64,000 nucleotides of DNA from an uncultured virus (IMG/VR IMGVR_UViG_3300042868_008818) (IMGVR_UViG_3300042868_008818:1-64000), one strand, 5' to 3'; positions 1-62,997 are shown, counted from the stretch's first letter. The notes: a model not told the origin generated them from the sequence alone. Numbers and translations: made by a program.

Positions 1-1817
1 AGGTCTCTTTCACCTGATTCAATTTTATTAATAACCTCATCTCTACGATAAGCGGTATTATCTACAATAAACTCAAGCATTTCTTCATCAGTAATATCTT
101 CAGGTTTAACTGGTTCAGGAATACAATTATGCTCTCTATCAAATAAATCAACATCATCAAAATAAAAACCTGTTTCACCAACTATTTGTTCAAACTTTGG
201 GATCATGGTATCTTCATACCATTCCTCTATTATGCTCGTCACAAAGTTTTTTCTTGCGTTAAAAATTCTCATTATCTTTTCTACTAATGTTTTTGTTATC
301 AGTAATGAACCACTATAAAATTTACCGTCTTCGTAATAGTATATTGCGGTAATAACTTCTTTACCGTTAACACACCAATCCTCACGAAGATTACCATAGT
401 TACGAGATTTTTTACCTATTTCTCTATTACCACCCTCAATATAATCATCAAGAAATAATGTGATAACTTTTCTAAGACTATCTGTAGATTTAAGGTATTT
501 TTGTCTTTTGTCTTCTTCCCTCAATACTTTTATTATGTTATTTTTATATTCATTGGATTCCCACATTTCTCGTTTATTAATATTCTCCTGTTCTTTAATA
601 TTAAAAATAAAACGTATCTTCCATTTACCAATTATTCTATCTGCAATACTATACATAAAATCATCATAATCAATCCCTCCCCAAATACCATTAAGCGTCA
701 GATTTACATCAACTTCAAACATAGGAATTCTACTTATACCTTTTTTTCTTTCTATATTTACAATAGTTATTTTATCTATAGTATCAACAACATCACAACC
801 ATCAAACGACAACCAACCAGGGAAAGTATCCGCATCAGGCACTTCACAAATATTTTTAATTTCATCAAGTGTTTGATCAACGATGTTTTGGAATGTCCCA
901 ATCATTGTTTTTTTATTTAACTTATTATCATTTGATTCTCTCATCAAATCTTTTCCTGTTCCTTCATGTTTTAATGTTATTGCATTTACAGGTATGTTTT
1001 CAAATGTCACTATATGTTTTGATCTTGATTCATAGTGTTTATCTTTGTACCACTTAACATCAGGTATTATTTCAGTATCAATTTCCCATACATCGTCATC
1101 GTATGTGGAATCAAAAGACGCTCTTTTATTTGTTGAGTTGGTTGCAAAGATTGCTGGTACACATTTTTCACCGTAACCTGCATATATTTTATAACATTCT
1201 CCGGCTCTTACTTTTAAACCTTCATTTGTTATTTTATCTCTAACCTTTGGATTAGATTTATGTATAACAATTTTGTTTGGTATTATTTCTTTACCCGCAG
1301 GGCTATATTCATCTTCCCTTAATATTCTTCTTATGGATTCCTGTAGTTTTGTTTTTGTTTTTAGTTTTTTAACTATATTATCTATCTGTGGATTTTTATT
1401 ATCTATAATATCATTAACAACATTAAATGCTTCTCTTGCTGCAAGTTTTCCTTTTTCTTTGTCTTCATAATTAAACACAACATTATACACACCTTTTTGT
1501 CCTTTAACTCCTCTTGTTCTTCCCCATCCTGTATCCATTCCAGCAAGTGTTTGTAATTCTAATGCTACGTGTTCTATAATGTGTCCCATCCAAGTTCCTT
1601 CTTTAATTCTTTTAAAAAATCCTCCTGGTTTTCCTTCTGAACATCTATGACTTTGTAATGACGGTAAATGTTCTTTTATTCTTTCGTAAAATCCTTCTAT
1701 TTTATTTGATGGTTTGTTTTCATAAACACCCAAATCTAAAACCATATGTATAAGTTTATCTTTGGACTCGCTCCATTTGTTTTTTCCATCGATAATATTG
1801 ATTGATTTTATTTTCAT
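1..1817 (-). CDS. Multi-module protein (>605 aa, runs off left edge): cyanophycin synthetase N-domain-like + ART-like + two unknown modules
   Basis: Hand translation, absent from ORF track. ATG at 1817 overlaps the upstream stop (TAATG); open to position 1. Starts MKIKSINIIDGKNKWS...LPSLQSHRCSEGKPGGFFKRIKEGTWMGHIIEHVALELQTLAGMDTGWGRTR; internal joints LQESIRRILRE, LMRES, NIIKVLREE. Confidence 0.9.
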   Translation of the reverse strand, partial: MKIKSINIIDGKNKWSESKDKLIHMVLDLGVYENKPSNKIEGFYERIKEHLPSLQSHRCSEGKPGGFFKRIKEGTWMGHIIEHVALELQTLAGMDTGWGRTRGVKGQKGVYNVVFNYEDKEKGKLAAREAFNVVNDIIDNKNPQIDNIVKKLKTKTKLQESIRRILREDEYSPAGKEIIPNKIVIHKSNPKVRDKITNEGLKVRAGECYKIYAGYGEKCVPAIFATNSTNKRASFDSTYDDDVWEIDTEIIPDVKWYKDKHYESRSKHIVTFENIPVNAITLKHEGTGKDLMRESNDNKLNKKTMIGTFQNIVDQTLDEIKNICEVPDADTFPGWLSFDGCDVVDTIDKITIVNIERKKGISRIPMFEVDVNLTLNGIWGGIDYDDFMYSIADRIIGKWKIRFIFNIKEQENINKREMWESNEYKNNIIKVLREEDKRQKYLKSTDSLRKVITLFLDDYIEGGNREIGKKSRNYGNLREDWCVNGKEVITAIYYYEDGKFYSGSLLITKTLVEKIMRIFNARKNFVTSIIEEWYEDTMIPKFEQIVGETGFYFDDVDLFDREHNCIPEPVKPEDITDEEMLEFIVDNTAYRRDEVINKIESGERD

Positions 1818-2914
1818 TATCTTTGTATTCTCCATAAATCTTTTATCATTTTTTCATACATATCGGAAACGTAGTTTACAAAATCAATTTCTTCTTGTTC
1901 TGGTAATTCATCCCAACCAATTCTATATTCTATCCACATAATCCATTCCACCGCCTTTAAAACAACTTCATATTTAAACTGTTCAAAACTTTCCGCCTCA
2001 TAAAATACTTCTTGTGCATATCTTTTAATTAGTTCTTGAACTTTATCCAAATCTATCCTCCTTTGGAAAAATGCCGATTCATTGATAGTTCCCACAGTTA
2101 ATTGTGATCTTAATGTTTGTTCATTTAAATGAAAGTATTTACCTTCTATGTCAATGTCTCTAACTTCAAGACCTGAGTTATCCTCGAACCATCTTTTAAA
2201 GACAGGAATCCATTTATTTCCAAATAATAATGTTAACCCATTGTTTACCCATTTTGTAATCACTAAAGCATATAAATAATCATACCCATCCCACTCACCA
2301 AGATAAGCATAAGCAAAGAGATCGTTTATCTCAAAGTCATAACTCCCATGTTCATTTACATCATTCCTATAAAAATCATGTAATTCTGGACCCCAATTAT
2401 AATCAGGATGATATTCTTCTTTTAAATATTGATATATAAATTCATTAAGATCTTCTCCATCAAAATCTAATATCTTTATTAATCTTTCTACACTACCAAC
2501 CGCCTTTGCCGTTTTTTTAATTCCTATACTACGAATCATTTGGAACAAATTATCTTGTATTGTTTCTTCCCTCAGTATTTTTATTACTGATTCATTTATA
2601 CCATATTTTGTTTTTATTAGGTCGTATCTTTTTTCTATTCTTTCATCATAAAATTTTCTAAGAACATAAAAAACATCATCATACCATTGTAACTCATTTG
2701 GGAGGGTATATACCAATATATTGTGTATTCCGTCTATGGTCATTGATAATATGGTATTTCTAAATGTAGCCAATGGTACAATACTACCACTTTCTTTAAG
2801 ATTTATTGAACACTTATTTGAAATCGTATCTAAACACTCGGTAAATTCCATTTCTAAATACTCAGGACTTACTCTACGTAAAATTAGATTTAATGTTTTA
2901 TCGTTTATGCTCAT
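1817..2914 (-). CDS. Multi-module hypothetical protein with internal (I/L)xE joints
   Basis: Track ORF 1817..2932; start moved to MSIND, 4 nt after TATTTAT. Internal INESVIKILREE and INESAFFQRRID. Confidence 0.8.
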   Translation of the reverse strand: MSINDKTLNLILRRVSPEYLEMEFTECLDTISNKCSINLKESGSIVPLATFRNTILSMTIDGIHNILVYTLPNELQWYDDVFYVLRKFYDERIEKRYDLIKTKYGINESVIKILREETIQDNLFQMIRSIGIKKTAKAVGSVERLIKILDFDGEDLNEFIYQYLKEEYHPDYNWGPELHDFYRNDVNEHGSYDFEINDLFAYAYLGEWDGYDYLYALVITKWVNNGLTLLFGNKWIPVFKRWFEDNSGLEVRDIDIEGKYFHLNEQTLRSQLTVGTINESAFFQRRIDLDKVQELIKRYAQEVFYEAESFEQFKYEVVLKAVEWIMWIEYRIGWDELPEQEEIDFVNYVSDMYEKMIKDLWRIQR

Positions 2915-2918
2915 ATTA

Positions 2919-2925
2919 ATAAATA
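2919..2925 (-). promoter_or_regulatory. TATTTAT putative phage (late-type) promoter, representative of about 20 copies
   Basis: Coding strand GTATTTATTAAT-ATG; same motif recurs before many genes. Confidence 0.65.
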
Positions 2926-2973
2926 CGACCATAAGATAAAACTGACTATTTTATAATTAACATAGTTGTTGTA

Positions 2974-3267
2974 TTAATAAAAATCATAATTTGTTTTATA
3001 GTACTCTACAAACTCTGATGTAATTTTTATTTTTTTTATATTAATGTTAAGTGTTGAGGATAGAAAACTTTTAATCTTGAATATGTTTGGTGTTTTAGAT
3101 ATTCTACCGAAAATACCATCTACAGGACCTAAAGTTATGACTAATTTTATGACGTATTGATCATCCCCAAAATCTTTAGGTTCTTTTGAAACATTTATTT
3201 GCACATCTTCCATTTCTTGGTAAACATGCGTATTAAGTAATTGTTTTATTAGTTTGGATTTGTCCAT
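2974..3267 (-). CDS. Hypothetical protein
   Basis: Start moved to MDKSK, 4 nt after TATATTTG. Confidence 0.7.
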   Translation of the reverse strand: MDKSKLIKQLLNTHVYQEMEDVQINVSKEPKDFGDDQYVIKLVITLGPVDGIFGRISKTPNIFKIKSFLSSTLNINIKKIKITSEFVEYYKTNYDFY

Positions 3268-3312
3268 ACAACAAATATACAAAATATTTTTTAATTTAAT
3301 AATAATATAAAT

Positions 3313-3341
3313 AAAAAACCCCATCCATGTGATGAGGTTTA
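3313..3341. terminator. Intrinsic terminator-like hairpin
   Basis: aaaaaaccccatc...gatgaggttt stem with A/T tails. Confidence 0.6.
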
Positions 3342-3476
3342 TTTTATTTTGATACCTGTAATTTTTTTGAATCTTCGTTTTAATTTCATTCTCAAATACC
3401 TATCAACAACTTTACTGATGTTCTTTTCTTTTTCTAACAACCTCATCTTTAGATCGTCCTCGGTTTTTATATACAT
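3339..3476 (-). CDS. Small basic hypothetical protein (45 aa)
   Basis: Hand translation MYIKTEDDLKMRLLEKEKNISKVVDRYLRMKLKRRFKKITGIKIK; fills the gap between gene and terminator. Confidence 0.6.
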   Translation of the reverse strand: MYIKTEDDLKMRLLEKEKNISKVVDRYLRMKLKRRFKKITGIKIK

Positions 3477-3477
3477 A

Positions 3478-3711
3478 TTAAATTAATTTAAAATTTTCTG
3501 TAGTTAACAATTTAACTATTCGTTTCTCAGATACTGAGTTAATTGCTGGTCTTGTTGCAACTTCAGTTATCCCCTTGGAAAATACTACTTGAAACTTCTC
3601 TGTGTTTTTAATGTAAAACCTTGATACATGACAGTATTCTCCTTTGTCATTAACAAAATTACCAAAAGATTTGGCCATTAATAGTTGTCCGAGTGTGATT
3701 TTATTTTCCAT
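3478..3711 (-). CDS. Hypothetical protein
   Basis: Start MENKI, 4 nt after TATCTTTG. Confidence 0.7.
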   Translation of the reverse strand: MENKITLGQLLMAKSFGNFVNDKGEYCHVSRFYIKNTEKFQVVFSKGITEVATRPAINSVSEKRIVKLLTTENFKLI

Positions 3712-3715
3712 ACCA

Positions 3716-3723
3716 CAAAGATA
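3716..3723 (-). promoter_or_regulatory. Bacteroidota-type -7 promoter element TAnnTTTG, representative of about 14 copies
   Basis: TATCTTTG-TGGT-ATG; matches the established Bacteroidota housekeeping promoter consensus. Confidence 0.75.
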
Positions 3724-3752
3724 TGTGAAATTTATTAATCCCACAAATAAAT

Positions 3753-4235
3753 TTAGTTATCTATTAAACCAAATGAATATGATTCATCTGACTCTTCTAT
3801 CTGTTCTGAATCTAACACTACCGTTGTATTTCTACCGGCGAATGCTGGTTCGTAAACCGCAACTGATTTAAATGGAAAAAATTTGTTCATTTCATCACGT
3901 AAAGTACTTATAATCCAAGATTCTAAATTACTTGCAAAAAGATTTGTTTTAAAATATATTTTAATACGTACTTTATCTGGTCTATTTCTATTAACCTCAA
4001 GAAAAGATATTTCAACATTATCAAATTCCACAAAATTAATAAAGTTTTTAACTAACATTTCTTGGGTTTCAATGTCGGTAACATCCAAATTTAATATTTT
4101 TACAACATTTTTAAATCCTCCAACAACACTAGATGCAAAATGAATACCTTTGGTTTTAAGTAAATCCCTAACACTTTTTTGAATGTCGGTATCTTCTTCC
4201 CTTAATATTTTTAATATTTTTTGATTGTCAAACAT
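3753..4235 (-). CDS. Leader-bearing hypothetical protein
   Basis: MFDNQKILKILREE; TATTTAT 5 nt upstream; shares the VGG..N..KIL helical module with 6937..7437 and 1817..2914. Confidence 0.8.
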   Translation of the reverse strand: MFDNQKILKILREEDTDIQKSVRDLLKTKGIHFASSVVGGFKNVVKILNLDVTDIETQEMLVKNFINFVEFDNVEISFLEVNRNRPDKVRIKIYFKTNLFASNLESWIISTLRDEMNKFFPFKSVAVYEPAFAGRNTTVVLDSEQIEESDESYSFGLIDN

Positions 4236-4290
4236 ATTAAATAAATACATCGTAATAATAAAAATAAACCCAACTTTTTGGTTAGGTTTA

Positions 4291-4890
4291 TTAATCCAAT
4301 GATTTTGGTAGATACAACAATGTTGGGTTCTTTTTTTGAATATCTACGTCAGGAAACTTCTCACTAAAAGTCTTAACATCAAATCTACCTGTAATCAAAT
4401 GCCACCCGTTTTTTGTTGGTATAACCGCTTCAATTTTTTTACCTTCGGGTCTAAGATAATTAATAAATTGCGATAGTTCAGTGACCGCATGAAAATCAGT
4501 TACGTCAATATCAACAATCCATCTTTTCTCTTGAGTTTTAATTTGTCCAACAACTGAATCAAATAGACCCTTTTGATTTGATACACCATCTCTAATACGT
4601 TCAGCAAGTGATGCCAACATATTTAACGATACATCTTTATGATTTTGTTTTTGTACGTGAATGTATGCTCGCGCTTTAAAGATCTCACATAGTTCTTTAA
4701 TCTCATCATACCTACGTTCCAAGTGTTCAATAGATTCAATACAATATGTTTTAATTGTACGAACTGACTGATGGTTATCTCTTTCTCCTTCAGGTTGATC
4801 TTTCTTACGTTTAAAAACATATAACATATAGAAATCCCCCTGTTCAGAAAAATTCAATAAAGGTTTAATAATTTCTAAATTGTTTATCAT
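4291..4890 (-). CDS. Phage protein with AEP/prim-pol-like motifs
   Basis: WIVDID and TKNGWHLI resemble AEP motifs I and II. Confidence 0.45.
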   Translation of the reverse strand: MINNLEIIKPLLNFSEQGDFYMLYVFKRKKDQPEGERDNHQSVRTIKTYCIESIEHLERRYDEIKELCEIFKARAYIHVQKQNHKDVSLNMLASLAERIRDGVSNQKGLFDSVVGQIKTQEKRWIVDIDVTDFHAVTELSQFINYLRPEGKKIEAVIPTKNGWHLITGRFDVKTFSEKFPDVDIQKKNPTLLYLPKSLD

Positions 4891-5194
4891 TTTTTATAAT
4901 TTTATATCCATTCAATTTCATCCACCCCAAAAAATCAAGTGCGGTCCATTTGTTTGGATCTAATTCACCTAAAGGTCCGTCACCAAACTGATCAATGAAT
5001 CCTTGGAGGATATCTTTTTCTATTTCAAATCCTCTATTTTCACTTTCATTTATTTTAATCTTAACCATTTCAATGGCACATTTTTCACATTGGACTGCCT
5101 TTTTATCTCCTGAAAAAGTATTCTTACATGTAATACAATTACAGTGATAAAATCCAGGTGCAAATCCACCTATTGGATATTTTACTTTTTCCAT
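4865..5194 (-). CDS. Hypothetical protein with Cys-rich zinc-binding motif
   Basis: CNCITC...CEKC. Confidence 0.65.
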   Translation of the reverse strand: MEKVKYPIGGFAPGFYHCNCITCKNTFSGDKKAVQCEKCAIEMVKIKINESENRGFEIEKDILQGFIDQFGDGPLGELDPNKWTALDFLGWMKLNGYKIIKNDKQFRNY

Positions 5195-5251
5195 TTTATT
5201 TAATTAACTTTACTTTCATAGGTCAAAAATACAAAACTTTTTTTAAAAAAC

Positions 5252-5285
5252 AAAATCCCACAACCTGTTAAAGTGTGGGATTTTT
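5252..5285. terminator. Intrinsic terminator-like hairpin
   Basis: aaaatccccaca...tgtgggattttt. Confidence 0.7.
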
Positions 5286-5315
5286 ATTGTTTGGTGTTGT
5301 GTTAATCTTATTGTA

Positions 5316-6524
5316 TTATATTTTTCCAAAATTAATGTAACTTGAGATATCATCTGCTTGGTCTCTTATTTTGTTAAATTCATATTGTAGTTCGTTAACC
5401 TCGTAAGTTATGTTTTTTAATTTTTTATCTAAATTTTCTTTTATTTTTAATAAATTATAGTACTTATCTTTTATCCCGTTAAATTCTAAAAATTGATCAA
5501 AACTTTTTGGTTCTATTTTCATTACTCTATAATAATTCATAACAATATCATACAATTCTAAAGTTTCTTTTACAAATCTTACAGATTTTGTTGCATTATA
5601 ACTTCTTTTTGCGGTGTTCAACACTTTGTATTTTTCTTTAAGTAAATTATCTAACTCTTCATACCTAGACTTATTAAATTCTTGTTCCTTTTTATACTGT
5701 TGATCATAATATTTTAAATAAAGATTATATGTATAATCTCTAATAAGGTTAATGAATACTCCTAAAAGATCTCTACCAATATATTTTCTAATAGTTTCAG
5801 GTTTTACTTCATCATCAATTGCATTCCAAAAAGCAAAATCACCTTTTTTACTATTTGCCAAAAAATTCTCTTTGTACCTCCAATCAGTACTTGTTGGGGG
5901 GTCGTACTGAATTGCAATTTTAAAGTAGTTTTTAGATTTTTTCTTTTCTGGTATTGGTTCTCTTAATTTATCTATAACAAAGAAAAATAAATTTGAGTCA
6001 CTATAGTTATCAAAATAATTGTTTGTGTTTGATGCAATACACCATTTAGTATTTGATCCATATTTACAGGAAGCTTCTTTATTTTTTGGTCTTACCAAAA
6101 CATACTTATCGTCCTCATATAATTTTTCAACACCGGATAATTCAAGTTCTTTTTTTGTGATTTTTGTTATTGCCTCTTCATATTTTTGTACAAATTCCTC
6201 ATAACTATATTGGTAAATGTCTTTTTTTTCAAATTTATGTTGATTTTTATCAAAATAATTAACCATTAACAATAAATCATTAATTTCTATACCTAAATTT
6301 TTTTGATCTCTTTCAATGAATACTTTTGACATCCAATTAAAATATTTTTTGGTTGCGGATGGGTCTCCATCATAAAAGTCTTCTATAACCCCATTGTATT
6401 CGTCATTAAATTTATTTTCATAATATTTAAGTAAATCGTCAAGTTTACTTTCAGATAAAATGGTCTTATTTGACAAGAAATTTGATAAACCATTAATTCT
6501 TTTTATTTCTTCTCTTAAATTCAT
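5316..6524 (-). CDS. Leader-bearing protein with ASCxYGxxTKWC domain and C-terminal coiled coil
   Basis: MNLREEIKRINGL...ILSE; RPKNKEASCKYGSNTKWCI; paralogous to 33933..34973 and 53234..55168. Confidence 0.8.
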   Translation of the reverse strand: MNLREEIKRINGLSNFLSNKTILSESKLDDLLKYYENKFNDEYNGVIEDFYDGDPSATKKYFNWMSKVFIERDQKNLGIEINDLLLMVNYFDKNQHKFEKKDIYQYSYEEFVQKYEEAITKITKKELELSGVEKLYEDDKYVLVRPKNKEASCKYGSNTKWCIASNTNNYFDNYSDSNLFFFVIDKLREPIPEKKKSKNYFKIAIQYDPPTSTDWRYKENFLANSKKGDFAFWNAIDDEVKPETIRKYIGRDLLGVFINLIRDYTYNLYLKYYDQQYKKEQEFNKSRYEELDNLLKEKYKVLNTAKRSYNATKSVRFVKETLELYDIVMNYYRVMKIEPKSFDQFLEFNGIKDKYYNLLKIKENLDKKLKNITYEVNELQYEFNKIRDQADDISSYINFGKI

Positions 6525-6556
6525 ATTAATAAATATCTTTTATATTATAAATTATC

Positions 6557-6934
6557 TTAATAATCATCTTCTTCTTCGTCCCAAGTGATAGGCTCATCAT
6601 CGTCTTCAATAGTCCCTAAATTACTATCTGATTCAACCCAAACTTCAAAAGGTGTTGATAGTCCGCAATTTTCAACATACTGAATAAAAAATTCTTCCAA
6701 ATATGAATCATCTTTAAAAATTCTAGATATTTGGTCATAGATTTCTTTTTGTACCGATAATGATTTATCTGGTTTAACTATTAAAAATATAACAGTGTTT
6801 CCCGGGGTTGCAAGATATTCCATTCCATAACGTTTGTTTTCCCAAGGTCTTAAATCCAACCTTGAGAGGAATAGTTTTGCGATCTCTTGTTTATCTATAG
6901 TTTCTTTTAATATATGTCTTATAATATCTTTCAT
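6557..6934 (-). CDS. Leader-bearing hypothetical protein
   Basis: MKDIIRHILKE. Confidence 0.8.
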   Translation of the reverse strand: MKDIIRHILKETIDKQEIAKLFLSRLDLRPWENKRYGMEYLATPGNTVIFLIVKPDKSLSVQKEIYDQISRIFKDDSYLEEFFIQYVENCGLSTPFEVWVESDSNLGTIEDDDEPITWDEEEDDY

Positions 6935-6936
6935 TT

Positions 6937-7437
6937 TTACATGTTTGTTACATCGGCCGTTAAACCATTAAAAAGGTGATACTTTATCTCTTTTAAATAT
7001 AATCTTAGATACTCATTAACAACGTCCTGTACTTCGTGTTTTATTTCATAATATAGTGGTTCATTTTCAAACAATTCCTCACCTAAAAGATTATAAGTTT
7101 CATTTGTAGTCATTATTAATTCTACCTCACCTTCAATTATTTCAAACATTATATCTAAATAATCATCTCTCATATCATGAACAATTTTGTGTATTTCAAA
7201 AACAAAATCATAACCACCTACTTGTAATGGTAATTCTAAATTACGTGTTGATATACTTTTTCCCACAAATTTTTCTCTAATTAAGGCAACAGGAGTAGTG
7301 TCAAGTATTTTTGCCAAATTATATATTCCACCAACTTTTCTACATACCATAAGAAGACCTTCATTTTCTATCATGTTATGGAACATTTTTTTTGGGTTAT
7401 ATTCTTCTTTTAAAATATTTCTTATTAGATTTTTCAT
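6937..7437 (-). CDS. Leader-bearing hypothetical protein
   Basis: MKNLIRNILKEE. Confidence 0.8.
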   Translation of the reverse strand: MKNLIRNILKEEYNPKKMFHNMIENEGLLMVCRKVGGIYNLAKILDTTPVALIREKFVGKSISTRNLELPLQVGGYDFVFEIHKIVHDMRDDYLDIMFEIIEGEVELIMTTNETYNLLGEELFENEPLYYEIKHEVQDVVNEYLRLYLKEIKYHLFNGLTADVTNM

Positions 7438-8303
7438 CCCTCTGTAATCTCTATATAATTGAAATGTTTATCTATATTAAAACCAAAGGATTCAATAACA
7501 TTATGAACAAACTGTTCAACCAATCCTACAATACCTTCTTTAAATTCATGATAAGAATAAAAATCATCAAATGGGTTATTACCTGTTGAGAAGTTTATGT
7601 CCTGCCCTGATTCTGAATCATAAAAGGTACCTTCTAATACAATAAAATTGACATCTAAATCTATATAATTTTTAGTTGGGTTTAATAGGTGTTTTTCGTC
7701 CTCTTCACTAAATTCAACTTTATCAAATTTAATAGTTAGTTTACCATCAAAAAAATCACCCATGACTTGTATCATTTCTCTTTCAGTAAATGTATTATCC
7801 ATTAGGTATTTAGTTATTATTTCAGTTCTACTATTACCATCATAACCCATATATTCCATAAAAAATAGAATTATCTCATTTTTTTTTGAACCCAATCCAA
7901 GTTTACTTATATCATATATGTTTGGTATTTTACCTTGTTTTTTTTCTTGATCCCATTTATTGAAGAAGAATTTTTTAAGTTGGTTTATATTATTAGACTC
8001 TTGTAATTGATTTTTTCCTGTTTTTCTAAAATTATAATAATACGCCTTTAATACAGGATTATAAATCTCAATCATATATTCTATGTATCCATCAACTTCC
8101 TTGGGTGGTAACTCATCTATATTGATATTGTATTTGTAATATATATAATTTTCTAATGTTTCTTTAACCAATCTCCATTTAAAATTATCAACCCCATTTG
8201 AGTCATAATAAACATATGATATACCTGTCCTCATCATTTTTTCAAATTTATGATGATCAATTCTTCTTACAAAAAAAGGCGAAATATTATGATTGTTATC
8301 CAT
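7434..8303 (-). CDS. Two-module hypothetical protein
   Basis: Start MDNNH after TATTTAT; FFVRRID module, joint LQES, then a module similar to 14488..15054. Confidence 0.8.
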   Translation of the reverse strand: MDNNHNISPFFVRRIDHHKFEKMMRTGISYVYYDSNGVDNFKWRLVKETLENYIYYKYNINIDELPPKEVDGYIEYMIEIYNPVLKAYYYNFRKTGKNQLQESNNINQLKKFFFNKWDQEKKQGKIPNIYDISKLGLGSKKNEIILFFMEYMGYDGNSRTEIITKYLMDNTFTEREMIQVMGDFFDGKLTIKFDKVEFSEEDEKHLLNPTKNYIDLDVNFIVLEGTFYDSESGQDINFSTGNNPFDDFYSYHEFKEGIVGLVEQFVHNVIESFGFNIDKHFNYIEITEG

Positions 8304-8485
8304 ATAGTATATAAATACCTTAATGAATATATTTGTCACCGTGTTTTACTCATAAATCTTTTTAATCAACTAACATGGTAAAAGATAAAAAAGAAGGTAA
8401 AAAAAGTAGAAACCCATCTTAAAGTGGATTTTTTTATTGTGATTATCCTATTGAATTTAATTTATAAAATATCTAATTTTAATTT

Positions 8486-8824
8486 ATGGATGACGTTACA
8501 AAATATTTCCCGATATTTGATAAATTTTTAAATGAAATGTCGTATGAATCTATATCCAATGTTGAGTTTATTAATGTAGAAAAGTTCTTTGACCGCACTG
8601 TTTTTATTGCCGAAACAAAGTTTGGTGAAGAGTTTGTGGTTAACCAAAGACGTATTAATTGTAAAATGGTTATTGGTGTTAATACATGTAATTACGGTTG
8701 GTCTTATAATAAAAGTTTATTAGAAAAACAATTTGTTTCGATGTTTAAAAGACAATTTAAAAGTATAGACTTTGATTATTGCCAGGTTGTTATTGAATCT
8801 GCTAATATGATTTCAAGTTATTAA
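8486..8824 (+). CDS. Hypothetical protein
   Basis: 112 aa ORF filling an otherwise empty interval. Confidence 0.65.
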   Translation: MDDVTKYFPIFDKFLNEMSYESISNVEFINVEKFFDRTVFIAETKFGEEFVVNQRRINCKMVIGVNTCNYGWSYNKSLLEKQFVSMFKRQFKSIDFDYCQVVIESANMISSY

Positions 8825-9275
8825 CAAATCTTTTTATTTCAGGATTTGATATAAATTCCTCAGTGTCTTTTTTTACTTGTTCTTGATCACATTCGTTATT
8901 ATCAAAGAACAAGTTAGGTATCCCATTACTTTCACCTTCTTTAATTGTTAGTTCTATAAAATCAGGAAGATATTTTACTGCTTCTGATTCATATTTTTCT
9001 ATTTTATTGATTACGTCATTATAATCATGTACTCCTTTTGAGTCGATATAATGATCACCTATTTTTATGTAAACGTGTATTAAATGATATTCAATAACTT
9101 CATTTGTGTCCAAGACTAATTCTTCGGCAATAACCAAATAATAAGTTATATCTTTATTGGGTAATAGTTTTTGCAATTTTTCTTTAACATTCATTGCAAA
9201 ATAATGACAAAAACCAAACTGATAATCGTAAAAATTCCGATTTTCTCTTAAAATTTTTACAATTAAGTTTTTCAT
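8802..9275 (-). CDS. Leader-bearing putative papain/transglutaminase-like cysteine hydrolase
   Basis: MKNLIVKILRE; GFCHYFA...HVYIKIGDHYIDSKG gives Cys-His-Asp in catalytic order. Confidence 0.55.
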   Translation of the reverse strand: MKNLIVKILRENRNFYDYQFGFCHYFAMNVKEKLQKLLPNKDITYYLVIAEELVLDTNEVIEYHLIHVYIKIGDHYIDSKGVHDYNDVINKIEKYESEAVKYLPDFIELTIKEGESNGIPNLFFDNNECDQEQVKKDTEEFISNPEIKRFVNNLKSY

Positions 9276-9994
9276 AACTTGGAATCTATTTCTCTCCCTA
9301 TTGTTTCGTATATTTTTAAATTACCGTGTGGATCTGAAACTTTACCAATTGGCGTATTTATAATTTTTGCTCCTTGGTTTTTGAATACGTTATAATACCT
9401 CTCAACATTTGATTCTTTAGTATCTTTGTTTCCTCCCCATCCCCAAGATCCCTGAACAACGTAAAAATTGGCCTTAGGGAAAGTTTTTTCTAAGTTGTCA
9501 AACAACCCACTGATGTCATCATTTGTGTTGAATCCTCCATTGGTACCAATACTTATGATCACATTTTTAACGGTGTTATCCGTCTCATATTTTTTAACCG
9601 CATTTTTTAACCAACTTACACCTATTCCACCTAACCATAAAGACTCTTCGCTACCTTTAGTTGATATTCTACTTGCCTTATCGGTCTTATTATCAATGTA
9701 TGGAACCTGTGAGTCACCAATTATAATGTTTTTATTTTCTATTTTAGAGTTTTCAGACGAAAATGATTTCTTTTCTACTTCTTTTTTTATTTCTTTTTCA
9801 ACCTCATCTTTGGTAGGTTCTTTTCCTTTAAACTTACTCATTATTTTTTTAAGAATATACCCCACCGCGGCACCTCCCAAAACATATTTACCTATTGTAC
9901 CTAAAATACTAAATAAACCTTCATTAATTGGTTGATTTTTTAGCTTGTTATTAACAAGTTTTTTAAATTGTTCTTCTGTTATTTTTATTTTCAT
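9272..9994 (-). CDS. Leader-bearing SGNH/GDSL-like hydrolase
   Basis: MKIKITEEQ...INE; hydrophobic segment; IIGDSQ, IGTNG, DPH. Confidence 0.65.
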   Translation of the reverse strand: MKIKITEEQFKKLVNNKLKNQPINEGLFSILGTIGKYVLGGAAVGYILKKIMSKFKGKEPTKDEVEKEIKKEVEKKSFSSENSKIENKNIIIGDSQVPYIDNKTDKASRISTKGSEESLWLGGIGVSWLKNAVKKYETDNTVKNVIISIGTNGGFNTNDDISGLFDNLEKTFPKANFYVVQGSWGWGGNKDTKESNVERYYNVFKNQGAKIINTPIGKVSDPHGNLKIYETIGREIDSKL

Positions 9995-10153
9995 TTTTTT
10001 ATTTAATAAATATTTGGTTAATCTCTTTAAATACTTTTTTTTGTATAAAATATAATTATGAAAAATTTAGAAAAAGTATTGTATAGAGTTAATGTATATG
10101 TTTTGTATTGTGTGGTAATATATTATATTATGTTAATTATAAAAAACTAACTA

Positions 10154-12685
10154 CTAACCAACAATCTTAGGAGTTTCGGCATCTATAATAAAAGTACCCA
10201 TAGGTGAGCCATCCCATTTTCGTTCTATTACAGATCCAGGTAATTCCATAGTATTAGAACGAAATGGAGTACCATCCAATGGGTTATATTTTATTTTCCC
10301 CCTTTTACCATCTTCACGAACAGTTCTTTCCAATCCTTTTTGTTTTCCCGTTATAATTGTTATACCATTATTTGGATCATAAAATCCCGCTAAATCTATT
10401 TGACTTGGTTTTCCAACTTTTTGTGACATTAATATTTCACACCAATAAGTATTGGTTCCTTTTTTTGGAATCCAATTCCCAGTTCTTTTACCATTAATAA
10501 TTTCAAATTCACCTTCTTCTATTTTTGTTGCGGTTTTTGTTTGTACTGTTTTAACCCCCCCACCAAAAATATTTTTTGTGTCAATAATTATTTGGTCAAT
10601 ACTTAATTGAGTATCTATAGGAGATCCGTTACTTGCGGTGTATTCGACTTTTAATCCATTTTTTTCAAATAATTCATTAACTTTTTGTTCGGAGAAATCA
10701 CCTACCGCTGTATTTTTTTTTATGTTTTTTGTTATATCATCAACCCTATTAATCCAATTTTTTACGTATTTTTCATTTTGATTTAATTTAAGTTTTATAT
10801 TTTCAAATTCTTTGTCTAATTCATTTTTTAATTTTAGTTTTTCTGGGGTATCTTTAACTGCCTTATTATAATCTTGTATTTTTTTAACAAAATCATCATA
10901 TTCATCTTTAGTTAAAATTGTTTTTATAAAAGTTGTCAACTCAAGTGGATTATCTCTATAATTTGTATCTAATTTATTTAAAGGTGACCAATCGCCATTT
11001 TCATCATAAATTCTTTTATAATTGTTTTTAACATCATTAATAAATTCATCTAAAGTCATTTTTTTTGTTCCACCTTCCATTGTGGTGGTGTAAATTTTTT
11101 TGTCCCCAAATTTACTTTTTAATAATTCTAAACCTTTTAAATATTCTTCAATTTCCTGTTTAGAGGCTCCTTCAACATATAATTTTTTATAATCTTTAAG
11201 AAATTTATCCCCCAAATCTCTAATTAAACCTATACCTTTACTATAATATATCCCATTTTTTCCAAAAATATCATGTACTATTTTGTCATTTCCTTTTACC
11301 TCAATCTGAATAACTTCATCGACCAAGTCATCAATAAAATTATCTGTTTTATTCATTTTTTTTAAATAATCCTCCATTGATCCTAAACCCATTAAAGATC
11401 TTTTTTCGTTTAATTTATTTAAAAATTCAACGTCATCTATTAGTCTTTGGGGACTTTCATAGAAATAGATTTTACCATCTAATTCTATTGGTCTTGGGAT
11501 CCATTCCCCATTTTCATTTACTCCTCCTTGTGATCCATATGTTTGTTTACCATTAATTAATTCCCCAAAATCTTCCATCCCACTATCCCTGTAACCAACA
11601 ACACTAGTGTTTGTATTAACCATTACTCTATCTTCTAACATTGCAATACCCATCTTTATATCTTGCGAATTAGTTGAGAATTTTGTTTCTAAGGTTTGTT
11701 GGTTATTTTGTAAAATTTTAAGTATCTCTTTTTGAAATTCTATGTCATTATCTGAATGTTGTATTATGATCCATAAATTTTCTAAATCCTCAAATGTATT
11801 TAGATTTTTTATAAAGTTTTCTTTGTCATTCCCCATTAATTTTTTTAATTCTGTTTGATTGGCAATATCTGTGGTAATATCTAAGTATTCTCCCTGTCTT
11901 ATTGATTGGTCACTATTGGCAAGTACTTTTAGTTTATCGGATATGTCTTTTATTGTTAACACACCTACATTTGTGTCCGCAATTGTTAATGCAGTCTTTA
12001 AGTCATTCATATTAGTTTTTACATCACCACTAATTTGTTTTTCATTACCTCTAAACTCATCAATTTGATTTTTAATGTCTAATAAATATTTACCCATAGG
12101 GTTGTCTGTAGGAATTTCATCTATTAAAGATAAAATTTTACCTTCAAGTTCGTTAATTAACTCTTCAGGTAAATCAGAATTTTTTATTCCTCCTTTATTA
12201 TAAACATATTTTAAGGAATCCAAAAAAGTAGAATTATTAGCATTAATTTGTTGATCCATTATTTTTTTAAACGCATCATTTAATGTAATAACAGAGTTTA
12301 AACCTGCGGTTGCTATATCATTTCTTGTTACTCTTGTTATTACATTATCAAAAAATCTAAAAACATCATTTTCAGGTAAATTGTTAATTATTTTTGTTAA
12401 ATTTGTTCTAATTAAATCTGTCATTTTTCCTTCATCAACCAAATTACCATATTCGTCACCATATTTTTGGTTAAACTCTTCAATAATATTTTTAAGGTAT
12501 CCTTTTTCAATATCTGTAAGATTTTGTGTGGTTTTTTTCACTAAGGATTTAATTATTTGCATCGCATCGCCGTAACCAGTATTCTCATTTAATAAAAATT
12601 TATTATATAAAAAAGATTCATTAATAAAATTTTTCAATCCCATTAACTCATGTATCCTACTTATTTCCGTTAAAAGTTTACTCAT
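10154..12685 (-). CDS. Large leader-bearing multidomain protein (DUF6624-like domain; possible C-terminal PD-(D/E)xK-like nuclease)
   Basis: MSKLLTEISRIHELMGL; LWIIIQHSDND...LEDRV...QTYGSQ...NEKRSLMGL; GDFSE...IDQII...VQTK. Confidence 0.6.
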   Translation of the reverse strand: MSKLLTEISRIHELMGLKNFINESFLYNKFLLNENTGYGDAMQIIKSLVKKTTQNLTDIEKGYLKNIIEEFNQKYGDEYGNLVDEGKMTDLIRTNLTKIINNLPENDVFRFFDNVITRVTRNDIATAGLNSVITLNDAFKKIMDQQINANNSTFLDSLKYVYNKGGIKNSDLPEELINELEGKILSLIDEIPTDNPMGKYLLDIKNQIDEFRGNEKQISGDVKTNMNDLKTALTIADTNVGVLTIKDISDKLKVLANSDQSIRQGEYLDITTDIANQTELKKLMGNDKENFIKNLNTFEDLENLWIIIQHSDNDIEFQKEILKILQNNQQTLETKFSTNSQDIKMGIAMLEDRVMVNTNTSVVGYRDSGMEDFGELINGKQTYGSQGGVNENGEWIPRPIELDGKIYFYESPQRLIDDVEFLNKLNEKRSLMGLGSMEDYLKKMNKTDNFIDDLVDEVIQIEVKGNDKIVHDIFGKNGIYYSKGIGLIRDLGDKFLKDYKKLYVEGASKQEIEEYLKGLELLKSKFGDKKIYTTTMEGGTKKMTLDEFINDVKNNYKRIYDENGDWSPLNKLDTNYRDNPLELTTFIKTILTKDEYDDFVKKIQDYNKAVKDTPEKLKLKNELDKEFENIKLKLNQNEKYVKNWINRVDDITKNIKKNTAVGDFSEQKVNELFEKNGLKVEYTASNGSPIDTQLSIDQIIIDTKNIFGGGVKTVQTKTATKIEEGEFEIINGKRTGNWIPKKGTNTYWCEILMSQKVGKPSQIDLAGFYDPNNGITIITGKQKGLERTVREDGKRGKIKYNPLDGTPFRSNTMELPGSVIERKWDGSPMGTFIIDAETPKIVG

Positions 12686-12872
12686 AACTTTCCCAAAATT
12701 TTAATAATTCTTTGTCTTTATATCTTTTTACTTTTTGATCCCAACCACATATATAACAGATAAAAGGATGATCATCATTTTTTTTCATTTTCCATGAATG
12801 ATCACACTTTTTACAAACTATGTTATCTCCAAATAATTTATCTGACTGTCTTTCTGTAATTATAATTTTCAT
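12678..12872 (-). CDS. Leader-bearing zinc-ribbon protein
   Basis: MKIIITERQ; CKKC...CYIC. Confidence 0.75.
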   Translation of the reverse strand: MKIIITERQSDKLFGDNIVCKKCDHSWKMKKNDDHPFICYICGWDQKVKRYKDKELLKFWESYE

Positions 12873-13369
12873 CTTTTTAAAGTGTTAATTATTTCTTCTT
12901 GGAAGAAGTTTTGAATTTCAGATTCACTGTCTTCACTTTTTAATGTGTCTTGTAATCTTACGTCATCATCATTTAATACACTATAAAAATCATAGTCAGT
13001 TAAATACCCTCTTTTATCTGTAACAATAACGCCAAGAAACTCATCTCCATTGAATGTTATTTCTCCATAATATTCTACCTCATCACCTTTATTAATTTCT
13101 TCGGAGAATTCAAATCTAAATGTCCTACCTTTTAGATTATATTTAAATCTCATTCCCTCTCTTTCATCAACCTTGTGAACATCTTCAATATCAAATATGA
13201 AATCTTCTGGATTACCTCCTCTTTCCGTAAAACTTTTAAAGGCTCTCAATATATCTTTTTCTGATGGTTTTAAATCTTCACCTTTATTCATTTTTGAATA
13301 TAGGTCAAGTACCTGATCAAGATTTTCTTTTAGGTAATTAAACTGTGATTCTGTAAGAATTATTTTCAT
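12869..13369 (-). CDS. Leader-bearing hypothetical protein
   Basis: MKIILTESQFNYLKE. Confidence 0.8.
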   Translation of the reverse strand: MKIILTESQFNYLKENLDQVLDLYSKMNKGEDLKPSEKDILRAFKSFTERGGNPEDFIFDIEDVHKVDEREGMRFKYNLKGRTFRFEFSEEINKGDEVEYYGEITFNGDEFLGVIVTDKRGYLTDYDFYSVLNDDDVRLQDTLKSEDSESEIQNFFQEEIINTLKR

Positions 13370-13373
13370 TTTT

Positions 13374-14060
13374 TTATTTAAAATCGTCTCTTGTGATTAT
13401 TTTTTCCATTCCAGAATCATACCATTCTCTTGATGACCAAATGTGTGAACTACTAATAAATCCATTATTACTTATTTGTAATGTCCCTGATGATCCATCA
13501 TCAAGTTCCCATCCACTATGTTCCGATTCTAAGTAATCATATGCCATGTTTACAATAGGCATAGTTTCCTCATTATGTTCCCAAGTGTAAATACTCTCTT
13601 CTTTACCATCAACAGACACTGAATTTATTTGCCCACTATCACCACCACCATCATATGAAAAATTAATAATTGATATTTTTTTTTCATTCATATATTTTAT
13701 TGTATCTGAAGTTTCAATAGGAAATTTACGTTCATTATATGTATCATGATCAACATATTCTTCAACAGAAACTCTTAATTCAAGTGTTTTATTTTTTGGT
13801 CTAAATATTGCCACTAACTGATACCCTTCAGTTTCACTATATGCGTTATCTAATAAATTGTCAGTTGCAAATTCTTCAATAATACTAACAATAATATTCA
13901 TTATAGATGACGGTATTTTTTTTCTGCCTAAATCATTACTTCCATATTCCCAATCTACATTTTCAATACCTGCCTCCCACATTGTCCATTCAAATCTTAT
14001 CTCATTTTGTTCATAAGATGATAAAAAGTTCATAATATTATCAAAAATTCTTTTTTCCAT
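13374..14060 (-). CDS. DUF6878-like protein
   Basis: FSYDGGGDSGQI...GWELDDGSSG; adjacent to a DUF6915-like gene. Confidence 0.65.
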   Translation of the reverse strand: MEKRIFDNIMNFLSSYEQNEIRFEWTMWEAGIENVDWEYGSNDLGRKKIPSSIMNIIVSIIEEFATDNLLDNAYSETEGYQLVAIFRPKNKTLELRVSVEEYVDHDTYNERKFPIETSDTIKYMNEKKISIINFSYDGGGDSGQINSVSVDGKEESIYTWEHNEETMPIVNMAYDYLESEHSGWELDDGSSGTLQISNNGFISSSHIWSSREWYDSGMEKIITRDDFK

Positions 14061-14072
14061 AGTTATAAATAT

Positions 14073-14426
14073 CTAATCATCAAATTTAAGATCCAAAGTT
14101 CTAATCATCCACATTGGTTTTTCTTTTTCTTGTAATGCTTTTATCCATTCTTTCGCAGATGGTACGTGATTAAAGCAGTCTTCTTTAACATGATCCTCAC
14201 CAACATATCTGGTATAAACCGTTTTTCCATCACTGTTTTGAAATGATGGTCCGAACACTTTTTCACATTCAAATATACCCTCACTATGGTGTCTAAACGC
14301 CCTATGATATGAGTGTCCAATCCATGCTTTTGTTTCATCAAACCATTCATGTATCTTTATGTAATCTTCAACTTTTCCTCCATATTTTTTAACAGAACTT
14401 TTTGCATGTATTTGTGGGTGTGCCAT
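14073..14426 (-). CDS. DUF6915-like His-rich protein
   Basis: MAHPQIHAKSS...HEWFDETK...HRAFRHHSEGI...HVKEDC. Confidence 0.75.
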   Translation of the reverse strand: MAHPQIHAKSSVKKYGGKVEDYIKIHEWFDETKAWIGHSYHRAFRHHSEGIFECEKVFGPSFQNSDGKTVYTRYVGEDHVKEDCFNHVPSAKEWIKALQEKEKPMWMIRTLDLKFDD

Positions 14427-14487
14427 AATTTTTACTTTTTAATAAATATAGTTTTTTACTTCATGTTTTTGTAGTATTTATTTAAAT

Positions 14488-15054
14488 ATGAAAGATCTTG
14501 TTAGGACTATACTTAGAGAAAATTCTCATTTAGAAACGTTAAAAAAATATTTTTGGGATATTTGGACTAACGAAGTAAATTCAGGTAAAATACCTAAAAT
14601 AGGTTACGTAGATATTCGTAGAAAAAACTTATCTAAATATATTAAGCAAATAGATAAGTGGTATAATGAATTTGTTGGTGGTAGTGATGAGTCTTTTAAA
14701 TTATTTGATCGTTACATGACAAATTTAACTGTTACGGATGTTGACATGCGAAAAGCGAATCAACCTATTAACCCTGAAGACAAATTTGAAATTTTGATTA
14801 CTCGTATTTTTAATGAATCTTATGACGAAAACATTGTAAAACAAACTTTAGAATTTGGTTTTATGATTAAAGATGCGACATTATTAACTGATGAAGGTAG
14901 ATTGACTTGGGATGAACTTTGGGACGAAAAGTACGATGATCTTTGGAATGATATTGAGAATTGGTTAAGAGGAGAACTTGAGGGTTATGTTCACACGATT
15001 CAATTAGATTTTGGTTTAGACTACCTATATATTGATTCCCAATGGGATGATTAA
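14488..15054 (+). CDS. Leader-bearing hypothetical protein
   Basis: MKDLVRTILRE; TATTTAT 6 nt upstream on + strand. Confidence 0.8.
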   Translation: MKDLVRTILRENSHLETLKKYFWDIWTNEVNSGKIPKIGYVDIRRKNLSKYIKQIDKWYNEFVGGSDESFKLFDRYMTNLTVTDVDMRKANQPINPEDKFEILITRIFNESYDENIVKQTLEFGFMIKDATLLTDEGRLTWDELWDEKYDDLWNDIENWLRGELEGYVHTIQLDFGLDYLYIDSQWDD

Positions 15055-15060
15055 AAAATA

Positions 15061-15086
15061 AAAAAGTCGAACTTTCATCCGACTTT
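15061..15086. terminator. Bidirectional terminator between convergent genes
   Basis: aaagtcg...cgacttt. Confidence 0.6.
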
Positions 15087-15092
15087 ATCTTT

Positions 15093-15323
15093 TTATTTCT
15101 TTATCATATGGTATTCCATCATTTCGGTTGCTTTAGCCACCGCTTGGTCTTTGGTTTTAAACCCACGTTCTTTAATATTTTTAGCGTGTATGATTTGATA
15201 AGTAGTTGAGGCAACTTCTTTGTTTTCTCCTCTTCCTGGTTTTTTTCTCATTGCATCTGCCGCGTAAACATCTAAAAAACCAACTTTACAAATGTAACGA
15301 CCTTTTGTTGTACCCTTTCCCAT
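15093..15323 (-). CDS. Small basic hypothetical protein
   Basis: 76 aa; TATATTTG upstream. Confidence 0.7.
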   Translation of the reverse strand: MGKGTTKGRYICKVGFLDVYAADAMRKKPGRGENKEVASTTYQIIHAKNIKERGFKTKDQAVAKATEMMEYHMIKK

Positions 15324-15369
15324 TTTTTTATTTTTTTGTTTTAATTAATACTTCTACAAATATAGTATT

Positions 15370-15738
15370 TTATTTTTGATCTGACAATATGAAATTTAAA
15401 AAATTTCTAATTGTTTTCATAAATTTTTGTCTTTCTGGGTTGTTGACATTATTTGAACCAAAAAACCAATCACCAACCATATCAGTTTCCTCAACTAACA
15501 TTTCAATAGTTTTTCTTTCCATATCTTTTTTACTACTGAAACTATTAAAACCAAAACCAGGAAATCCTTCAAATCTATATTCGGTAACTTCTAATGGTTT
15601 TTCATTATACCAATCAGAACCTAAATTTTTTTTTTCTATTTTGACTCTTCTTATTAAGAAGTTTAATAATGAACGATCAATCTCCTCGTGTTGTGAGGAG
15701 ATTTGATCCTTTTCATTTTCATTTATTATTATTTTCAT
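15370..15738 (-). CDS. Leader-bearing hypothetical protein
   Basis: MKIIINENE. Confidence 0.75.
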   Translation of the reverse strand: MKIIINENEKDQISSQHEEIDRSLLNFLIRRVKIEKKNLGSDWYNEKPLEVTEYRFEGFPGFGFNSFSSKKDMERKTIEMLVEETDMVGDWFFGSNNVNNPERQKFMKTIRNFLNFILSDQK

Positions 15739-26023: not shown

Positions 26024-26044
26024 ATCACAAAGATACAATTTTTT

Positions 26045-48800: not shown

Positions 48801-48881
48801 ATAACAATAAATATGAAACATTTACAAATAAGACAATAGACTGATATTTATGTTTAAATAAACATTAAAAAACAATTTGTT

Positions 48882-62643: not shown

Positions 62644-62997
62644 TTAATATTTGTATCTTTGTTTGAACGAACTGTCAATTTCTTTTTTGTCCATTCCTTT
62701 TATTTGATCTTTCTTTTGTTCGTAATAATTATTTACGGTTGTTTTTTCACTTTTTATTTTTAATATATTTTCATCAATCTTTTCAATATCTTTTTTATAT
62801 GATGTGATAGAATCATTTAATTGTAGTTGTAAGTTTTTAACTTTACTAATGTTTTGATCTAATTGATCTAACTTATAATTTAATAATTCAGACCTATCTT
62901 CAATTGGTTTAAATATCTTAATTAGAATTATTGTTAATAATAATGTTAATACTACTAATAAGATTTCTTTATAATATTTAACTAAAAAATTTTTCAT
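62644..62997 (-). CDS. N-terminal TM coiled-coil protein (possible i-spanin-like)
   Basis: One TM followed by heptad repeats. Confidence 0.45.
   Translation of the reverse strand: MKNFLVKYYKEILLVVLTLLLTIILIKIFKPIEDRSELLNYKLDQLDQNISKVKNLQLQLNDSITSYKKDIEKIDENILKIKSEKTTVNNYYEQKKDQIKGMDKKEIDSSFKQRYKY

Follow-up and report, generated by a model that had tools for sequence, protein, structure and literature searches.

A putative block of leader-tagged cassettes shuffled at leader DNA in an uncultured virus, with possible parallels to the capsid targeting sequence of phage T4

The stretch of DNA analysed here, hereafter the window, comprises bases 1–64,000 of a 76,219-bp record of an uncultured virus in the IMG/VR database (IMGVR_UViG_3300042868_008818; CheckV completeness 26%). 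The window has a guanine plus cytosine content of ∼28% and its minus strand carries nearly all of the genes. At its left end, from 1 to 15.7 kb, lie open reading frames (ORFs) that share a short peptide, termed here the leader. This peptide is found at the N terminus of small proteins and, in three long ORFs, at the joints between protein modules. A cassette consists of a leader and one small domain, which is mostly acidic. Searches of Pfam and the PDB with the window modules yielded no match beyond a Cyanophycin_syn domain in the three long ORFs, and searches of PHROGs yielded none.

The leader is amphipathic and ∼13 residues long, and two types can be distinguished. The type-1 leader reads M-N-L-Q-E-S-I-R-R-I-L-R-E-E, with variants, and the type-2 leader ..L-Q-E-Q-I-S-R-I-K-E-M-M-G-x-I-N-E-S. 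When the leader core was searched as a regular expression, 8 matches were found in the 25 ORFs (5,208 amino acids (aa)) to the left of 15.8 kb, whereas 2,000 residue shuffles averaged 0.107 matches and never exceeded 3; the other 116 ORFs of the record contain 2 matches. Five of the eight are N-terminal (ORFs 3753..4250, 6557..6934, 6937..7437, 8802..9275 and 14488..15054) and three are internal, two of them in ORF 3..1835 and one in ORF 1817..2932. None of these three internal type-1 leaders has an ATG. The complete relative G001 has 22 N-terminal copies of the leader.

ORF 3..1835 (minus strand) is cut by the contig end and probably begins at ATG 1817. It reads, in order, a Cyanophycin synthase-like N-terminal domain (the Cyn module, 1341..1835; PF18921, E=1.7e-44), a leader, module D, a decayed leader, module E, a leader and module F. 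The Cyn/D joint is the internal type-1 leader LQESIRRILRE at 1314..1346, detected by the regular expression. Module D (933..1301) occurs alone in a leader-bearing gene of 143 aa on the related contig L007 and fused after a module termed C on L011. The D/E joint at 918..947 holds a decayed leader, LMRES..., recognized by alignment, and module E (537..917) stands behind an N-terminal leader in the relatives P0048 and P0050 and directly after Cyn in P0049 and P0067. The E/F joint is a second internal type-1 leader, NIIKVLREE, at 513..539 (regular expression), and module F (3..500) has lost its 3′ part at the contig end.

The second long ORF, 1817..2932 (minus strand, probable start ATG 2914), carries three modules in the order A-B-C. 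It has lost its own N-terminal leader, which the relatives of module A possess. Module A (2603..2914) is helical, begins ..LILRRV and is found alone on L006 and L007. It is joined to module B by the internal type-1 leader INESVIKILREE at 2564..2599, again detected by the regular expression. Module B (2129..2563; G..VG..L.KIL, then YHPDYNWGPE...) is followed by the internal type-2 leader LNEQTLRSQLTVGTINES at 2075..2128. This LNEQ...INES joint aligns with the N-terminal leader of P0039 and P0042 (MNLQEQISRI..MMG.INES) and is thus an internal copy of the type-2 leader. Module C (FFQRRID...) occupies 1820..2074. The third long ORF, 7434..8339 (minus strand, probable start ATG 8303), comprises a C-type module, a decayed leader recognized by alignment (LQES, 7995..8006, a joint also marked by homology boundaries) and module G. 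These joints had been proposed in an earlier note on this DNA, and the positions given there are borne out; LMRES, placed at about 930–945, is found at 933–947.

The cassettes also occur in the block as stand-alone genes, all but one on the minus strand. The exception, 14488..15054 (plus strand), consists of the type-1 leader MKDLVRTILRE and module G. A leader with a B-type N-terminal subdomain makes up both 3753..4250 (probable start ATG 4235) and 6937..7437, the leader of the latter being MKNLIRNILKEE. The leader is MKDIIRHILKE in 6557..6934 and MKNLIVKILRE in 8802..9275; the module of the latter is fused behind another module on L050. An 843-aa ORF, 10154..12685, opens with a type-2 leader (..EISRIHELMGL..INES), and a small ORF at 15370..15738 has an MKIIINE-type N terminus. 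Upstream of ATG 4235 lies a terminator-like hairpin (4292–4263) followed by the motif TATTTATTTA (4247–4238). This motif is weakly enriched (8 occurrences against 3.4 expected, with 8 reached in 2 of 100 shuffles). Such a hairpin with TATTTATTTA behind it, close upstream of the ATG of some leader genes, is seen at 4292–4235, 15086–15063, 44466–44454 and on L006 at ∼1890–1950.

Further families of N-terminal tags lie outside the leader motif, at 9272–9994, 12678–12872, 12869–13369, 15370–15738, 38575–39825, 40972–41475 and 47295–48821. One such family has the form MKI(I/K)ITE(S/E)Q..., and another, MK..(I/V)(K/R)LTESDL.RIVRRVI(K/N)E, is represented by six small G001 paralogues, a number of which lie behind TATAAATA-like strings.

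The earlier note had also claimed that modules recur in different positions within the block, and this was examined by all-versus-all BLASTP among 117 window ORFs. The FFxRRID module is shared between ORF 1817..2932 (aa 284–364) and ORF 7434..8303 (aa 6–86) with E=8.5e-10 and an hhalign probability of 96.8%. The LKKFF...GKIP module is likewise common to ORF 7434..8303 (aa 100–276) and the stand-alone gene 14488..15054 (aa 9–178), with E=6.5e-7 over 180 residues. The claim for G..VG..L.KIL holds within the window for ORF 1817..2932 (aa 113–162) and 3753..4250 (E=3e-5); the match to 6937..7437 reaches only E=0.08, and a relative, L007_2256, bridges the three ORFs (E=3.9e-7, 1.2e-6 and 2e-35). 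A link between 1817..2914 and 15370..15738 through L..L.RRV, and with it the claimed tie of the small ORF to module A, is not supported, there being no BLASTP match and an hhalign alignment of only 13 columns (E=0.017, probability 2.7%), which amounts to a short motif. Modules A and C were considered as distant homologues, and the hhalign result (probability 22%, E=1e-3, 76 columns) is suggestive only.

An AlphaFold2 model of ORF 1817..2932 built from 31 sequences (mean predicted local distance difference test (pLDDT) score of 76.9) contains three confident domains, the first of which covers module A at aa 10–110. The stretches with pLDDT <50 are aa 1–9, 113–123 (joint 1), 216–218, and 269–272 plus 275–286 (joint 2). 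Both joints of this ORF are therefore predicted to lie in low-confidence linkers and not inside folded domains. The leader itself is modelled as a helix running into the first helix of module B (H114–136). For ORF 3..1835 the model rests on a mosaic alignment and its mean pLDDT of 45.7 is too poor to place the three joints; module E is its best part and is moderately modelled. Foldseek searches of the PDB and BFVD with the ORF 1817..2932 model gave no match at E≤1e-3, the best being to uncharacterized proteins of uncultured Caudovirales, and an ESM Atlas search returned unnamed viral clusters only.

When module order was compared across related phage genomes, the modules were found alone, reordered or fused, with boundaries at the joints. 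Coverage of ORF 1817..2932 by its 50 database relatives is blockwise. Some of them comprise A+B and end just before joint 2, some comprise B+C, and others carry C first followed by something else, or C last behind other domains. On related viral contigs, B (161 and 167 aa, leader-started), A and D exist as separate genes. On L007, C alone (108 aa) sits directly upstream of B, the order in the window being A-B-C, and in another relative C and D are fused in a protein of 426 aa. The architectures of ORF 3..1835 were assessed in 178 relatives with high-scoring segment pairs (HSPs) at E<1e-6. Sixteen architectures were found, including D+E (54), E (54), D (28), Cyn (21), Cyn+D (6) and Cyn+D+E (2). 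Of the 28 proteins with a Cyn domain, 27 have a type-1 leader directly behind it and one has a type-2 leader, and what lies downstream of Cyn and the leader in these 28 proteins falls into 17 different clusters.

Clusters of HSP boundaries are seen at every claimed joint. In ORF 3..1835, 77 starts fall at aa 163–177 (Cyn/D), 53 starts at aa 298–307 (D/E) and 81 ends at aa 423–434 (E/F). In ORF 1817..2932 there are 124 starts at aa 280–288 and 32 ends at aa 258–270, 30 of which are the relative's own C terminus, and in ORF 7434..8303 there are 122 ends at aa 86–113 and 31 starts at aa 93–109. A more general test used 262 proteins and breakpoints internal to both partners, scoring those with a leader core within 12 aa against random positions. 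Breakpoints were near a leader in 404 of 1,669 cases on the left (99 in the null) and in 504 of 2,065 on the right (132 in the null), an excess over random of ∼4-fold. The same fusions recur in independent metagenome clusters and assemblies with open frames and at 45–96% identity, A+B in >15 clusters, B+C in P0001, P0005, P0010 and P0011, and D+E in the 54 relatives counted above. The fused ORFs are thus not assembly artefacts. The family is large (4,835 proteins at E≤1e-5 among the 8,000 candidates scored). ORF 7434..8339 has no tblastn match in the phage isolate database, and ORF 1817..2932 has no relative among 185,579 prokaryote genomes.

The leader is conserved not only as a peptide but also as DNA. 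Across 7 records, 19 distinct leader copies show near-fixed synonymous codons, several of them rare in the genome background (given in brackets), with AAC in 13 of 14 cases (0.26), CTA in 13 of 17 (0.08), TCC in 7 of 9 (0.06), AGG in 12 of 14 (0.11) and ATA in 31 of 31 (0.35). An exact, purine-rich leader string of 35 nt is present in 30 copies on 21 IMG/VR contigs, with up to 4 copies within ∼5 kb of one contig. The start codon plus one codon immediately precedes 28 of the 30 copies; the other two are internal. The sequences behind the string form 17 unrelated BLAST clusters. L050 and L066 have an upstream module in common (..RLVEN), which the identical string connects to two different modules. 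In a T4-like phage, repeats that are identical over such a length offer an obvious substrate for homologous recombination and gene conversion. Because of the frozen codons, the 35-nt string before 17 families and the 17 partners of Cyn, we conclude that the leader DNA probably serves as a recombination joint. The earlier proposal that cassettes fuse and recombine at shared leader DNA, so generating diversity, is well supported by the varied module arrangements of the relatives, the HSP clusters, the frozen codons, the 35-nt string and the L050/L066 pair, and it is very likely, judged from these sequence comparisons, that modules have been shuffled and fused there.

Selection on the DNA is not the whole account of the leader. 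The MKELIRHILKEE variant follows the same I-R-x-I-L-[KR]-E-E pattern in other codons, and in diverged internal copies (INESVIKILREE in the A+B relatives at 45–96% identity) the peptide is kept through R/K and I/V swaps as the codons drift. The linkers before internal leaders vary and the leader itself is kept. This pattern of substitution indicates that selection acts on the leader peptide itself as well.

The relatives provide a context for what the peptide might do. Four related records, recruited with ORF 1817..2932, are 274–304 kb in length and 93–100% complete. Three of the five related records searched encode both a capsid protein of the Gp23 type (E∼1e-64) and a prohead protease of the T4 gp21 type (Peptidase_S77, E∼1e-23). 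These carriers are three of the four related records that are at least 90% complete and have lengths of 290–304 kb. The head genes of G001 are arranged as in T4, in the order terminase, portal, protease, an acidic ORF of 466 aa and major head protein, with the protease at 135771–136499. The capsid protein is only 27% identical to that of Straboviridae and 42–43% identical to those of an uncultured 484-kb phage and a Microcystis phage. Hence, by the measure of its capsid protein, the lineage belongs to the T4 head lineage, in which it is a giant and distant member. Two leader-bearing ORFs lie within the head-gene block of G001 (128996–130345 and 141671–142969). A leader ORF of 432 aa beside the G001 capsid gene was considered as a gp24-like capsid paralogue, and no such relationship was detectable (BLASTP E=0.096, with no Pfam or PHROG head family).

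According to passages in PMC9958956 and PMC5694885, a capsid targeting sequence (CTS) of ∼10 aa at the N terminus of T4 IPII and IPIII loads these proteins into the prohead core, and gp21 trims gp24 by 10 aa, gp23 by 65 aa and itself by 9 aa (PMC9958956). On the T4 genome (NC_000866) the propeptides read MAKINELLRE/S, ..GSFLTE/A, MNEPQLLIE/T and MKTYQEFIAE/A, with the slash marking the cut, and Alt begins MELITELFDE. The T4 propeptides therefore end in LLRE, FLTE, LLIE and FIAE, and every leader class ends in [IVL][IL][KR]E, the closest being the gp24 propeptide. The cleavage consensus of gp21 is L/I-x-E. Side by side, the leader and the T4 CTS share a pattern only, 10–13 residues being too short for a test of homology.

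The T-even internal proteins have only their leader in common and lie in hypervariable loci, as described in parts of PMC12373910, PMC3012670 and PMC2839356, citing Repoila et al. 1994. To the extent that these sources describe it, the T-even ip/CTS system (T4 IPI, IPII, IPIII, Alt and the gp24 propeptide) resembles the present block in that a short N-terminal leader is the sole likeness of unrelated small proteins, and also in its hypervariable loci, the hydrophobic-x-Glu end of the leader and the gp21- and gp23-type head genes, found here in relatives. The present leader differs in being ∼13 rather than ∼10 residues long, with no homology to the T4 CTS detectable over so few residues. Moreover, it precedes far more families, its DNA is frozen at synonymous sites and it also serves as an in-frame joint within ORFs.

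We propose that homologous recombination or gene conversion inside the ∼40 nt of leader DNA would drive the in-frame shuffling of cassettes and would also homogenize the leaders. The comparisons show modules exchanged, inserted, lost or fused in frame precisely at the leader, giving rise to stand-alone genes and to ORFs of two to four modules in which the leader survives as a flexible interdomain joint. By analogy with T4, the leader peptide may act as a CTS that directs its proteins to the prohead, and a gp21-type protease there would cut after the terminal Glu of the leader. Multi-module ORFs would then be split into their modules inside the head and delivered with the DNA, the internal leader copies functioning as piggy-back tags and cut sites. 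As a whole, the reading of the first 15.7 kb of the window as a hyperplastic block of cassettes shuffled at leader DNA, with targeting and cleavage of the CTS kind, has in our estimation an even chance of being right. The CTS-like role taken separately, that is, proteolytic release after the terminal Glu and head cargo, is plausible at somewhat below an even chance, given the gp24-like ending of the leader, the leader-only sharing and hypervariable loci of the T-even phages and the leader ORFs in the G001 head block. More tentative, and in our view on the unlikely side, is the strict double role, in which a coding string of ∼40 nt would be both an in-frame DNA recombination joint and a peptide address tag and cut site for injected modules, allowing populations of these giant T4-like phages to combine, exchange and link up dozens of small effector modules.

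Several observations weigh against this reading. Many homology breakpoints lie far from any leader detected by the regular expression. The D+E fusion persists in 54 of the 178 relatives and, together with the decayed joints LMRES and LQES, means that a working tag is dispensable at these joints at least. None of the window's three multi-module ORFs has a leader at its N terminus, the position described for the T4 CTS. With K, E, I and L so common in the proteome, a hydrophobic-hydrophobic-K/R-Glu ending is not very informative. The window genes adjoining the leader block are not structural. No prohead protease match was found in the virus's own 76-kb record (26% complete) or in two of the five related records, one of which is a 26% fragment. 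In addition, the frozen codons could also reflect a function at the level of RNA. Two results count neither way: a complex prediction between the G001 protease (aa 40–242) and the first 40 aa of a leader protein, which scored 0.00 without controls, and the isoelectric point of 4.1–5.4 in 11 of 14 modules, which neither fits nor excludes head cargo.

Some of these points would be accommodated if the leader were a shared helix with another protein-level job, for example docking to a common partner such as a chaperone, oligomerization or service as a tolerated linker, within multidomain proteins that act intact in the infected cell and undergo neither head loading nor cleavage. The three leaderless N termini, the non-structural neighbours and the acidic modules fit such a role, as do the retention of internal leaders at the peptide level, the continuity of the modelled leader helix with module B and the presence of a DnaJ homologue at 56987–57910 (full length by Pfam, with J, zinc-finger and C-terminal domains). 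However, the Glu-terminated, T4-propeptide-like ending of every leader class and the two leader ORFs inside the G001 head-gene block would be left unexplained. We regard a helix of this kind as a rather unlikely explanation.

The leader might instead act as a nucleic acid, being a site for translation initiation or for a regulator on mRNA or DNA, with the peptide as a by-product and the fusions arising by chance when such sites recombine. Frozen synonymous sites, rare codons included, and the placing of an identical purine-rich 35-mer before 17 unrelated families, 28 times in 30 at an ATG, are what commend this idea. It is improbable, however, given that the MNLQES.. and MKELIRH.. variants encode a common peptide pattern in different codons and that the peptide outlasts the codons in the INESVIKILREE copies. 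The predicted RNA folding energy from −20 to +45 around the start codon is also ordinary, with no difference between leader genes (n=21) and others (n=411; Mann–Whitney P=0.35). Finally, an origin of the long ORFs as artefacts, or as read-through fusions of adjacent small genes that are decaying and have no function as fusions, is highly improbable, since the same fusions with open frames recur in many independent assemblies at 45–96% identity, the internal type-1 leaders of the window have no ATG and the linkers vary around a leader that is kept, against which can be set the decayed leaders at some joints and a fused ORF in G001 (53511–54218) whose internal leader (..NNMNLQEN..) retains its ATG and the bases upstream, which might allow the downstream module to be translated alone as well.

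The rest of the window carries auxiliary genes of phage type identified by Pfam, namely thymidylate synthase, a UvrC-like nuclease, RNA ligase, DnaJ, methylases and NUDIX. The thymidylate synthase ORF (22078–23373, 431 aa) matches Pfam in two stretches and therefore contains a large insertion within the domain, and the UvrC-like nuclease (24755–26038) combines GIY-YIG with an RNase H fold (Pfam). The remainder of the record encodes a sigma-70-like factor, SbcCD-like proteins and a primase-like protein, as assigned from reading of the translations; the sigma-70-like protein, judged in the same way, is the 275-aa ORF at L004 2927–3754. A membrane-protein-like ORF at L004 158–1315 (record 64158–65315) contains a tandem (T/I)PQV repeat of ∼5 units. 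Two DUF6878-type paralogues (13374–14060 and 16295–16978; mutual E=0.001, Pfam E=1.5e-10) lie on either side of a DUF6915 gene and a DUF5856 gene (Dps-like, PHROG 858) with a long Asp/Glu run. One module is common to three larger ORFs, 5316–6524 (aa 121–186), 33933–34973 (aa 135–195) and 53234–55168 (aa 221–325), with E=2e-8 and 8e-4, and the first ∼115 residues of ORF 5316..6524 and ORF 62994..63569 are alike (E=0.003). Small ORFs at 19743–19982, 27357–27620, 27617–27865, 27865–28089, 62225–62641 and 19080–19454 have N termini resembling those of lipoproteins or signal peptides (..SC.., ..FSQ), and no Shine–Dalgarno sequence is seen at start regions. We take this combination to suggest a host among the Bacteroidota.

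Three other known systems bear comparison with the leader block. In CdiA and Rhs proteins, C-terminal regions are exchanged at VENN and PxxxxDPxGL, respectively; orphan modules carry the motif and deletion can fuse an orphan to the upstream gene (passages in PMC3150448). As far as that source describes them, they share with the block a constant N-terminal part and variable C-terminal modules at a short conserved motif, here Cyn and the leader with 17 partners. The block differs in belonging to a phage, in modules that are also free genes with their own start codon and in several joints per ORF, and a Pfam scan of the region detected no family of toxin, immunity or secretion type. For polyvalent proteins, Iyer et al. 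2017 propose packaging, delivery together with the DNA and processing into units (parts of PMC5512222). In that description these proteins resemble the single phage polypeptides seen here with two to four unrelated domains. The joints here differ in being one repeated leader motif and the modules in being small, and Pfam detected neither an embedded MPTase or other peptidase nor typical polyvalent domains in the three long ORFs, Cyanophycin_syn being the only match. Promoter/stem-loop (PeSL) cassettes of T4-type phages are short gene-boundary sequences proposed to mediate shuffling in hyperplastic regions (passages in PMC2839356 and PMC4122927). Some leader genes here similarly lie behind a terminator-like hairpin and TATTTATTTA. 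Unlike PeSL, the main conserved joint in the block is coding, so that exchange is in frame and can fuse proteins. Neither the leader strings nor leader-jointed fusions were found in the literature searched, most subscription journals lying outside it; only work on T4, SPN3US and polyvalent proteins was returned. What is new relative to the T-even ip/CTS theme is the doubling of the tag as an in-frame joint inside ORFs, together with the freezing of its DNA.

If the proposed targeting is correct, the T4 device of a few injected, tagged proteins would have been scaled up in these viruses to a combinatorial system in which modules are portable, stackable and deliverable. The block would then be a viral counterpart of polymorphic-toxin or integron-like cassettes, yielding ever-changing cocktails of injected proteins. 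The leader and its joint would serve as a signature for injected phage proteins, likely anti-defence factors, in metagenomes in which hardly any such protein can be annotated, and would suggest a design, taken from nature, by which large capsids could be loaded with foreign proteins. With targeting left aside, the in-frame shuffling of domains through a codon-frozen linker is still an unusually clear instance of viral protein evolution resembling exon shuffling.

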